Assembly (NCBI RefSeq): GCF_003334815.1
Contig: NZ_QOWO01000006.1
DNA: 64,000 bases
Source: Escherichia coli
GTDB lineage: Bacteria > Pseudomonadota > Gammaproteobacteria > Enterobacterales > Enterobacteriaceae
Strand: one strand, 5' to 3'
Of the stretch, positions 14,186 through 37,089 are shown one piece after another. The notes below the pieces were generated by a model that searched no databases, had not been told where the DNA came from, and saw nothing but the letters and a program-made list of their open reading frames with translations. Positions within the stretch are counted from its first letter, which is position 1; each line of letters opens with the position of its first letter. The position numbers and the translations under genes were made by a program.

Positions 14186-15247
14186 ATGCTCGAAATGTTG
14201 ATGCAATGGTATCGCCGCCGTTTTAGCGACCCGGAAGCGATTGCCTTGCTGGTTATTTTAGTTGCCGGATTTGGCATTATCTTTTTCTTTAGTGGCCTGC
14301 TTGCTCCGTTGCTGGTGGCTATTGTGCTGGCCTATTTGCTGGAATGGCCAACCGTGCGTCTGCAATCTATTGGCTGCTCCCGCCGCTGGGCGACGTCGAT
14401 TGTATTGGTGGTTTTCGTCGGTATATTGCTACTGATGGCGTTCGTGGTACTGCCTATCGCCTGGCAACAGGGCATCTACTTAATCCGCGATATGCCGGGG
14501 ATGCTCAATAAGCTTTCTGACTTTGCCGCCACGTTGCCGCGCCGCTATCCGGCGTTAATGGACGCGGGCATTATTGATGCAATGGCCGAAAATATGCGCA
14601 GTCGGATGCTGACCATGGGCGATTCGGTGGTGAAAATTTCCCTCGCCTCGCTGGTCGGTTTGCTGACCATAGCCGTCTATCTGGTGCTGGTGCCATTGAT
14701 GGTCTTCTTCCTGCTGAAAGACAAAGAGCAGATGCTGAACGCCGTTCGCCGGGTGCTGCCGCGTAACCGTGGGCTGGCAGGACAGGTGTGGAAGGAGATG
14801 AATCAACAAATCACCAACTATATCCGCGGCAAAGTGCTGGAGATGATCGTGGTGGGGATCGCCACCTGGCTGGGGTTCTTGCTCTTCGGGCTGAACTATT
14901 CGCTGCTGCTGGCAGTGCTGGTCGGCTTCTCGGTTCTTATTCCGTACATTGGCGCATTTGTGGTGACCATTCCGGTGGTTGGCGTGGCGCTATTCCAGTT
15001 TGGCGCAGGTACTGAATTCTGGAGCTGCTTCGCGGTGTATCTGATTATTCAGGCGCTGGACGGCAACCTGTTAGTGCCGGTGTTGTTCTCCGAAGCGGTT
15101 AACCTGCATCCGCTGGTGATTATTTTATCGGTGGTGATCTTCGGTGGTTTGTGGGGATTCTGGGGCGTATTCTTCGCCATTCCGTTGGCGACGCTGATCA
15201 AAGCCGTGATTCATGCCTGGCCCGATGGGCAAATCGCGCAAGAATAA
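14186..15247 (+). CDS. perM: AI-2E/PerM-family inner-membrane permease
   Basis: 353 aa polytopic membrane ORF; recognised as YfgO/PerM. Confidence 0.9.
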   Translation: MLEMLMQWYRRRFSDPEAIALLVILVAGFGIIFFFSGLLAPLLVAIVLAYLLEWPTVRLQSIGCSRRWATSIVLVVFVGILLLMAFVVLPIAWQQGIYLIRDMPGMLNKLSDFAATLPRRYPALMDAGIIDAMAENMRSRMLTMGDSVVKISLASLVGLLTIAVYLVLVPLMVFFLLKDKEQMLNAVRRVLPRNRGLAGQVWKEMNQQITNYIRGKVLEMIVVGIATWLGFLLFGLNYSLLLAVLVGFSVLIPYIGAFVVTIPVVGVALFQFGAGTEFWSCFAVYLIIQALDGNLLVPVLFSEAVNLHPLVIILSVVIFGGLWGFWGVFFAIPLATLIKAVIHAWPDGQIAQE

Positions 15248-31185: not shown

Positions 31186-31201
31186 AGTTTAGGGAGATTT
31201 G

Positions 31202-32236
31202 ATGGCTTACTCTGTTCAAAAGTCGCGCCTGGCAAAGGTTGCGGGTGTTTCGCTTGTTTTATTACTCGCTGCCTGTAGTTCTGACTCACGCTATAAGCGT
31301 CAGGTCAGTGGTGATGAAGCCTACCTGGAAGCGGCACCGCTTGCGGAGCTTCATGCCCCGGCTGGAATGATTTTGCCGGTGACCTCCGGTGATTATGCAA
31401 TCCCGGTGACCAACGGTAGTGGTGCTGTCGGTAAGGCGCTGGACATTCGTCCACCAGCCCAGCCGCTGGCACTGGTTTCTGGCGCGCGTACCCAGTTCAC
31501 GGGCGATACCGCTTCATTGCTGGTGGAAAATGGTCGTGGCAATACTCTGTGGCCGCAGGTGGTTAGCGTGCTGCAGGCGAAAAACTACACCATCACCCAA
31601 CGTGATGATGCTGGTCAGACACTGACCACCGATTGGGTACAATGGAACCGTCTGGACGAAGACGAGCAGTATCGTGGTCGTTATCAAATCTCTGTTAAGC
31701 CGCAGGGTTATCAGCAGGCGGTTACGGTTAAACTGCTGAACCTGGAACAGGCGGGCAAACCGGTTGCAGACGCGGCTTCCATGCAGCGTTACAGCACGGA
31801 GATGATGAACGTTATTTCCGCCGGTCTGGATAAATCTGCCACTGACGCCGCGAACGCTGCGCAAAATCGTGCCTCCACCACTATGGACGTACAAAGTGCA
31901 GCTGATGACACCGGTTTACCAATGCTGGTCGTACGCGGGCCGTTCAATGTGGTTTGGCAACGTCTGCCAGCGGCGCTGGAAAAAGTGGGCATGAAAGTGA
32001 CCGACAGCACCCGTTCGCAGGGCAACATGGCCGTAACTTATAAGCCGCTGTCTGACAGCGACTGGCAGGAACTGGGCGCGAGCGATCCAGGCCTGGCATC
32101 CGGTGACTATAAACTGCAGGTTGGCGATTTAGATAACCGCAGCAGCCTACAGTTCATCGATCCGAAAGGTCATACTCTGACTCAGAGTCAGAACGACGCG
32201 CTGGTAGCTGTCTTCCAGGCTGCGTTTAGCAAGTAA
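31202..32236 (+). CDS. bamC: Outer-membrane protein assembly lipoprotein BamC (NlpB)
   Basis: ATG 31202 preceded by AGGGAG; [27 protein letters not shown] (lipobox LAAC), 344 aa. Confidence 0.93.
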
Positions 32237-32243
32237 AAATACA

Positions 32244-32270
32244 GGGCTGGAATCATCCGGCCCTTTTTTC
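32244..32270 (+). terminator. Rho-independent terminator after bamC
   Basis: GGGCTGG-aatcat-CCGGCCC followed by TTTTTT, 8 nt after the bamC stop. Confidence 0.65.
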
Positions 32271-32279
32271 TGATATGAT

Positions 32280-32295
32280 ACGCAAACGTGTGCGT
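32280..32295. promoter_or_regulatory. PurR operator (PUR box) of purC
   Basis: ACGCAAACGTGTGCGT, 15/16 match to the palindromic PUR box ACGCAAACGTTTGCGT, ~155 bp upstream of the purC ATG. Confidence 0.65.
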
Positions 32296-32340
32296 CTGCA
32301 GGAAAACGCGATTTTAGCGGTAATTCGCACGAAATTTGTT

Positions 32341-32385
<45 letters not shown>

Positions 32386-32448
32386 ACATCCGGCACACCA
32401 GACAGCAAAAGATTTTAAAACGTTAATTCACACCCAGGAGTGATAAAG

Positions 32449-33162
32449 ATGCAAAAGCAAGCTGAGTTGTATCGTGGTAAAGCGAAAACCGTATACAGCA
32501 CGGAAAACCCGGACCTGTTGGTGCTCGAATTCCGCAATGATACGTCAGCAGGGGATGGCGCGCGCATTGAGCAGTTTGATCGCAAAGGTATGGTGAACAA
32601 CAAGTTCAACTACTTCATTATGAGCAAACTGGCTGAAGCGGGTATCCCGACTCAAATGGAGCGTCTGCTCTCCGATACCGAATGTCTGGTGAAAAAGCTG
32701 GATATGGTGCCGGTTGAGTGTGTCGTGCGTAACCGTGCTGCTGGCTCTCTGGTGAAACGTCTTGGAATCGAAGAAGGTATTGAGCTGAACCCGCCGCTGT
32801 TCGATCTGTTCCTGAAAAACGACGCCATGCACGATCCGATGGTCAACGAATCTTACTGCGAAACCTTTGGCTGGGTGAGCAAAGAGAACCTGGCGCGTAT
32901 GAAAGAGCTGACCTACAAAGCGAACGACGTGCTGAAAAAACTGTTCGATGATGCTGGTCTGATTCTGGTCGACTTCAAGCTGGAATTTGGTCTGTACAAA
33001 GGCGAAGTGGTACTGGGTGATGAGTTCTCCCCGGACGGTAGCCGCCTGTGGGACAAAGAAACGCTGGAGAAAATGGACAAAGACCGTTTCCGCCAGAGCC
33101 TCGGTGGCCTGATCGAAGCCTATGAAGCCGTCGCCCGCCGCCTGGGTGTACAGCTGGACTGA
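32449..33162 (+). CDS. purC: SAICAR synthetase
   Basis: ATG 32449, [28 protein letters not shown]..., 237 aa. Confidence 0.95.
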
Positions 33163-37010: not shown

Positions 37011-37089
37011 GCCTGATAAGACGCGTGAGCGTCGCATCAGGCATCGTTCACCATTGCCGGATGCGGCGTTAACGCCTTATCCGGCCTAC
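37011..37089. repeat. REP elements (pair) between ypfH and ypfN
   Basis: GCCTGATAAGACGCGTGAGCGTCGCATCAGGC and GCCGGATGCGGCGTTAACGCCTTATCCGGCCTAC. Confidence 0.8.

Follow-up and report, generated by a model that had tools for sequence, protein, structure and literature searches.

The 16-base palindrome between bamC and purC is the PurR operator of Escherichia coli purC

The 16-base palindrome ACGCAAACGTGTGCGT, located at positions 32280-32295 of the window (the whole stretch of 64,000 nucleotides of E. coli DNA that was analysed), is the operator of the purine repressor PurR at purC, and it almost certainly represses this gene by steric exclusion of RNA polymerase (RNAP) at an extended -10 promoter. 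This assignment draws on the sequence of the element, the mapped position of the transcription start site (TSS), the occupancy of the site by PurR in vivo, the rise in RNAP in cells that lack PurR, and phylogenetic conservation. The operator is already known from the literature since 1990 and from genome-wide PurR maps, and it was a showcase of an occupancy study published in 2021; as thoroughly documented textbook biology, it has little weight as a discovery. What is gained here is a geometry fixed to the single base (terminator end at 32270, -10 element at 32271-32279, operator at 32280-32295 and +1 at 32286), the reason why a standard -35/-10 scan misses the purC promoter, and the recognition that the long leader bearing a REP element is a lineage-specific insertion and not part of the control logic. 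Two minor new points are proposed from sequence comparison: how the REP insertion probably arose, and that the -10 element apparently moved around a fixed operator between genera.

The segment 32200-32460 was 100% identical to that of E. coli K-12 MG1655 and was found in all 5,426 complete E. coli genomes, where it is intergenic between bamC and purC. The gene order in the window (bcp, gcvR, dapA, bamC, purC, ypfJ, tmcA) corresponds to NC_000913.3 2593844-2600948 in reversed orientation. Published coordinates were transferred to window positions (w) with a map anchored on the purC ATG at 32449 and verified against three published motifs (NC_000913.3 = 2630067 - w; U00096.2 = NC_000913.3 value minus 1978). 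The features between bamC and purC are as follows:

32234-32236, plus strand: stop codon TAA of bamC (ORF 31199-32236; bamC annotation in E. coli genomes)
32243-32270, plus strand: intrinsic terminator of bamC (9-bp stem and 4-nt loop at 32243-32264, T-run at 32264-32269, 3' end at 32270)
32271-32279, plus strand: extended -10 element of purC, TGaTATGAT (TG at 32271-32272, one base, TATGAT at 32274-32279)
32280-32295, no strand assigned: PUR box, the PurR operator of purC, ACGCAAACGTGTGCGT (-6 to +10, centre at +2.5)
32286, plus strand: transcription start site of purC, an A and the seventh base of the box (two independent genome-wide TSS maps)
32286-32448, plus strand: 5' untranslated leader of purC, 163 nt (mapped TSS to the ATG at 32449)
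32436-32440, plus strand: Shine-Dalgarno sequence AGGAG, 8 nt before the ATG and kept across genera
32449-33162, plus strand: purC coding sequence, SAICAR synthetase, 237 aa (ORF; RefSeq annotation b2476)

Of the 16 positions of the window 16-mer acgcaaacgtgtgcgt, 15 agreed with the perfect PUR-box palindrome ACGCAAACGTTTGCGT; the sole difference was a T-to-G change at position 11, and the central CG step was intact. Within the 64-kb window it was the single match to ACGCAAACGTTTGCGT at no more than one mismatch; matches of this quality appeared in none of 100 dinucleotide shuffles, and the analytic expectation under uniform composition was 0.0015. Relaxing the scan to three mismatches yielded two further matches in the window (8934-8949 and 11818-11833), 3-mismatch matches being expected by chance at 0.64 per window. 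Further, the purC motif listed in a PurR ChIP-chip study (Cho 2011, Table 1, PMC3159470; ACGCACACGTTTGCGT, U00096.2 2595794-2595809) corresponds in reverse complement to the window 16-mer, and its coordinates convert precisely to those of the box. The first-pass annotation had named the element a PUR box one mismatch away from the ideal palindrome, which both the 15/16 match and the coincidence with the published motif confirm, and had located it downstream of the bamC terminator, ahead of purC and of a REP element, in agreement with the ORFs, the terminator scan and the REP coordinates. Its heading also had the box overlapping the REP region, and this part did not hold, given that 45 nt lie between the two (32295 to 32341).

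The position of the operator relative to the promoter was taken from two published TSS maps. Kim 2012 (PMC3415461, supplementary file 2) reported a single purC TSS at U00096.2 2595803 with a 5' UTR of 163 nt; the upstream sequence listed there ends in ...TGATACGCAAA, also given as ...CTGATATGATACGCAAA, and the start falls on window position 32286, also by direct sequence match. In the SMRT-Cappable-seq data of Yan 2018 (PMC6131387), the b2476 transcript starts at NC_000913.3 2597781 and ends at 2596861, its start converting to the same base as that of Kim 2012. With the mapped +1 at base 7 of the box, the operator extends from -6 to +10, and 10 bp out of its 16 lie in the transcribed region.

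The -10 hexamer ended 7 nt before the mapped TSS, and the operator began at the base directly after it. TGn directly ahead of the hexamer, a start 7 nt after it (within the 6-8 nt of this class) and the absence of a -35 element point to an extended -10 sigma-70 promoter. No -35 element was found for purC, the candidates AATCAT, ATCATC and GAATCA matching TTGACA at 0-2 of 6 positions and falling inside the bamC terminator, in its loop and 3' arm. A standard sigma-70 -35/-10 scan did not find the purC promoter, a two-hexamer search missing it because it has an extended -10 element and lacks a -35. To take the empty scan as proof that a promoter is absent was rejected, since the two TSS maps agree on the start.

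On the upstream side, Yan 2018 (PMC6131387) placed the 3' end of the dapA-bamC transcript, labelled 'terminator b2477', at NC_000913.3 2597797. This is window position 32270, the base before the TG and 16 nt upstream of the purC +1. Because this end adjoins the TG, terminator, promoter, operator and start are packed without spacers in 32243-32295. It had been proposed from the sequence that the operator lies within or near the transcribed leader rather than upstream of the promoter. The start at 32286, inside the box and upstream of the REP (+56 to +99), bears this out with one nuance: the operator overlaps the core promoter and the +1, and it is neither a pure leader operator nor a pure roadblock operator.

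The bamC terminator hairpin and its T-run were kept across genera in the alignment of purC loci. Within E. coli, coverage of the terminator/promoter segment was reduced in about 20 of the 5,426 genomes. In strain ETEC1701 (locus L083, NZ_CP122938.1 1349049-1349395), a copy of IS200C lay in the bamC terminator, at the equivalent of about 32243-32264, replacing the hairpin that directly precedes the T-run and the purC -10 element; both the -10 element and the box were intact.

Published in vivo data could be matched to the window by coordinate. In the ChIP-chip study, log2 enrichment at purC was 2.08 with adenine and 1.52 without it, which is among the strongest sites, and purC was counted among the repressed genes of the IMP pathway (Cho 2011, PMC3159470). 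The purC promoter was also the worked example of the IPOD-HR study (Freddolino 2021, PMC8282354, Fig 1C), in which the site was occupied in rich medium and the occupancy was lost in a ΔpurR strain or in minimal medium, while RNAP occupancy at purC was substantially higher in ΔpurR. Occupancy at this site in vivo is therefore dependent on purines and on purR, and the site, at -6 to +10 of purC, overlaps the promoter of a purine-metabolism gene. Reviews list purC among the PurR-repressed genes and describe PurR sites as mostly promoter-overlapping. Both Cho 2011 and a review credit the repression of purC by PurR to He 1990 and Meng 1990, and binding of PurR at purC in vitro goes back to work from 1990 (He, Meng, Tiedeman) that is represented here by its citations in later papers.

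PurR, a repressor of the LacI family, binds the 16-bp operator when loaded with hypoxanthine or guanine and thereby turns off purC, whose product, SAICAR synthetase, catalyses step 7 of the de novo pathway to purines. In the proposed mechanism, a PurR dimer seated on -6 to +10 would cover DNA needed by RNAP for contact and melting. Because the dimer would occupy DNA that RNAP must bind and melt, repression would take place by steric exclusion at initiation, and it is this that the reciprocal occupancy of PurR and RNAP in the published data most likely reflects. The exact step that is blocked, formation of the closed or of the open complex, is the part of the mechanism that we infer.

To follow the operator in relatives, 80 purC loci were compared, one genome per species, with purC orthologues that were 69-100% identical. 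A box with no more than one mismatch was present at 27 of the 80 loci, and 25 of these boxes had every base of the E. coli 16-mer, the off-consensus G11 among them. The identical 16-mer was found in Escherichia, Citrobacter, Pseudocitrobacter, Enterobacter, Leclercia, Kluyvera, Pluralibacter, Phytobacter, Cedecea, Siccibacter, Pseudescherichia and others. Boxes with two or three mismatches occurred at 16 more loci (Erwinia, Mixta, Serratia, Providencia, Morganella, Edwardsiella, Tatumella, Rosenbergiella, Shimwellia and Pantoea sp.). All box-bearing loci (up to three mismatches) belonged to Enterobacterales; the operator is conserved at the orthologous locus of related species. No box was detected within 300 bp in the remaining 38 loci, which included Gilliamella, Pseudomonas and Alteromonadales as well as some Enterobacterales (Photorhabdus, Yersinia, Budvicia), and the box was absent from the fetched loci of Orbales, Alteromonadales and Pseudomonas.

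The off-consensus G at 32290 (box position 11) was kept in about a dozen genera, and the perfect PUR palindrome was found at none of the loci fetched. Two Enterobacter sp. loci (L021 and L064) carried the mirror-image box ACGCACACGTTTGCGT, as if one mismatch had been maintained or the 6-bp centre had been flipped. Within E. coli, identity of a 74-nt promoter segment went down to about 92-95%. In five divergent strains that were sampled, differences were confined to 32251, in the terminator loop, and to 32296-32302, while 32265-32295, comprising the -10 element and the box, was invariant; the extended -10 element was also invariant in Citrobacter, Pseudocitrobacter and Pluralibacter. The variants at 32296-32302, directly 3' of the box, read CTGCAGG, CGGCAGA, AGGCAGA and CGACAGA.

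Nothing of substance was found against reading the box as the PurR operator of purC, the minor irregularities being its one off-consensus base (G11) and its location just downstream of the -10, a small departure from the interval between -35 and -10 that Cho 2011 give as general. Other readings were weighed against the same data. It is unlikely that the box serves mainly as a roadblock to polymerases that start at the dapA and bamC promoters and pass the bamC terminator, as happens at purB and purR, where PurR roadblocks are documented. Some polymerases do cross the box, as shown by read-through operon variants in the SMRT-Cappable-seq data (b2477-b2476, b2477-b2476-b2475 and b2478-b2477-b2476-b2475; Yan 2018, PMC6131387), which cover bamC-purC, bamC-purC-ypfJ and dapA-bamC-purC-ypfJ. 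However, the purC-specific transcript starts inside the box, so that, at the main promoter, operator and RNAP binding site overlap and the former is not downstream of the latter. Operators of the roadblock class lie well downstream of +1 and outside the initiation footprint of RNAP, whereas the purC box is at -6 to +10. Moreover, the bamC terminator is efficient enough to be called the end of the dapA-bamC transcript, and roadblocking could possibly be a secondary effect only. Three readings that go beyond present knowledge, namely that the promoter shifted around a fixed operator, that the REP insertion lengthened the leader and that the PurR site also roadblocks read-through, are conceivable, and we entertain them only tentatively.

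The palindrome could also be viewed as an RNA element, either a 5'-terminal stem-loop in the purC mRNA or a hairpin that assists the bamC terminator, as it is a near-perfect inverted repeat and ACGCA/UGCGU pairing would be possible in read-through RNA. This is highly improbable: the purC mRNA begins at the seventh base of the box, which leaves the left arm untranscribed, the dapA-bamC transcript stops short of the box, at 32270, and the 16-mer is conserved base for base across genera with no compensatory changes, as is expected for a protein site. An RNA-hairpin role was excluded on these grounds, and in addition no Rfam family matched and PurR occupancy has been demonstrated by ChIP-chip and IPOD-HR. 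That the box is a palindrome that arose by chance and has no function hardly deserves any credence. Short palindromes are generally frequent and 3-mismatch matches do arise by chance (0.64 expected), but a match at no more than one mismatch was reached in 0/100 shuffles (expectation 0.0015), the site is bound in vivo, and it is kept across roughly a dozen genera while its flanks diverge.

With the box taken as the PurR operator of purC, the location of the promoter around it was compared between genera, the -10 elements being predicted as the best consensus-matching hexamers. A predicted -10 abutted the box upstream (TATGAT or TATAGT) in Escherichia, Citrobacter, Pluralibacter and Kluyvera. 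In Enterobacter, Leclercia, Pseudescherichia and Edwardsiella, it was located 2-5 nt downstream of the box (TGgCATAAT, GATAAT, TAAAAT, TATAAT), and in Erwinia mediterraneensis, Mixta, Rosenbergiella and Tatumella it ended 11 nt upstream of the box (TGgCATAAT). The loci with the downstream arrangement were L004-L006, L012, L015, L025, L026 and L061, and those with the 11-nt upstream arrangement were L033, L039, L051, L053 and L059. These predicted positions suggest that the purC promoter was relocated around a fixed PurR operator during enterobacterial evolution.

Downstream of the operator, the leader of purC contained a REP element between two related segments:

32299-32330, plus strand: duplicated leader segment, copy 1, CAGGAAAACGCGATTTTAGCGGTAATTCGCAC (local alignment with copy 2)
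32341-32384, minus strand (consensus strand): single REP, +56 to +99 of the leader, with its core at 32355-32380
32403-32433, plus strand: duplicated leader segment, copy 2, CAGCAAAAGATTTTAAAACGTTAATTCACAC (local alignment with copy 1)

Of 32 positions in the classical REP consensus, 30 were matched by the minus strand of the REP. Its 26-nt core (32355-32380) occurred five times in the window at no more than one mismatch, versus 0 expected, and the median number of places hit per E. coli genome was 6 with the leader as megablast query. It thus showed the imperfect palindrome of about 35 nt, the consensus match, the multicopy occurrence and the extragenic location of REP elements. An Rfam search of the 163-nt leader returned no family above the gathering score, and no riboswitch or known leader RNA; a match to the REP-derived naRNA4 was weak (E = 0.0008, below gathering), and a match to suhB was discarded as spurious. 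The fold of the purC leader had no unusual stability (z = -1.5). A 1990 paper on purC reportedly describes dyad symmetries in the 5' part of its mRNA. Searching the literature for REP in connection with purC returned nothing relevant.

The REP was present in all 5,426 E. coli genomes and in E. albertii, and absent from the other genera aligned. In line with this, the distance from box to ATG was 65-68 nt in most genera, compared with 168-169 nt in E. coli and E. albertii, and the alignment revealed an Escherichia-specific insertion of roughly 100 bp that carries the REP. The two flanking segments aligned locally with a score of 31, versus 13.3 ± 2.8 in shuffles, which was reached by 0 of 1000 shuffles; they shared a 13-nt core repeat 103 nt apart, and both aligned to the single-copy leader of Citrobacter and Pseudocitrobacter. 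The REP is placed between two diverged copies of an ancestral leader segment of about 32 nt. Since the insertion is Escherichia-specific and flanked by the leader duplication, the REP entered the purC leader secondarily and stands outside the operator logic. Judging from the alignment, a REP insertion in Escherichia with a duplication of about 32 nt would have lengthened the purC leader from about 60 to 163 nt, and it may possibly alter mRNA stability or translation. Target duplications of about 32 nt are not usual in REP mobilisation.

Compared with E. coli REP elements in general, that of the purC leader is alike in its consensus match (30/32), its multicopy nature and its extragenic location. 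It differs in lying in a 5' UTR, in contrast to the usual 3' or intercistronic location, and in being a single REP flanked by a target duplication of about 32 nt. Further REP cores with no more than one mismatch to that of the purC leader were located at 12009-12034, 37058-37083, 61800-61825 and 61900-61925. The last two have the same orientation and are 100 nt apart, and so represent direct REP copies and not an inverted BIME pair. Beside the purC-leader REP, a terminator-like hairpin with a T-run was found on the minus strand at 32387-32404, which is probably a by-product of the REP flank because no minus-strand gene lies upstream.

As to known systems, the purC site is itself a catalogued member of the E. 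coli PurR operator set. With the promoter-overlapping operators of purF, purL, purMN, purEK, purHD and purT it shares the 16-bp consensus, the central CpG, the repressor and its corepressors, and the overlap with the core promoter, whereas the purC promoter is set apart by its extended -10 element and lack of a -35. The arrangement at purC may be likened to lac O1, where a dimer of the LacI/GalR family likewise sits on a palindrome overlapping the transcription start, with the difference that PurR needs a corepressor while LacI is released by an inducer. We know of no auxiliary operators or looping at purC. The typical PurR motif lies between -35 and -10 (Cho 2011, PMC3159470), in contrast with the purC box, which is located just downstream of -10 and includes the +1. 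The roadblock operators of purB and purR have the repressor, the motif and a partly transcribed box in common with purC. They are located, however, well downstream of the start, in the reading frame, and block elongation (Cho 2011, PMC3159470), whereas the purC box overlaps the +1 and the polymerase footprint and hence acts on initiation.

Other PUR-like sequences were observed elsewhere in the window. The match at 11818-11833, ACGCGCGCGTTTGCGT, has 3 mismatches to the PUR palindrome, which is within the chance expectation (0.64 per window), and is probably due to chance. The sequence at 14231-14246, CCGGAAGCGATTGCCT, coincides with a weaker ChIP-chip motif of PurR assigned to yfgO/yfgC (Cho 2011, PMC3159470), and is the third published PurR motif of the window. 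The match at 8934-8949, AAGCAAACGTTTGCGA, reverse-complements the purMN operator published for PurR, TCGCAAACGTTTGCTT, and its coordinates map exactly to the purMN entry of the same study (Cho 2011, Table 1, PMC3159470); it is the second bona fide PUR box of the window.
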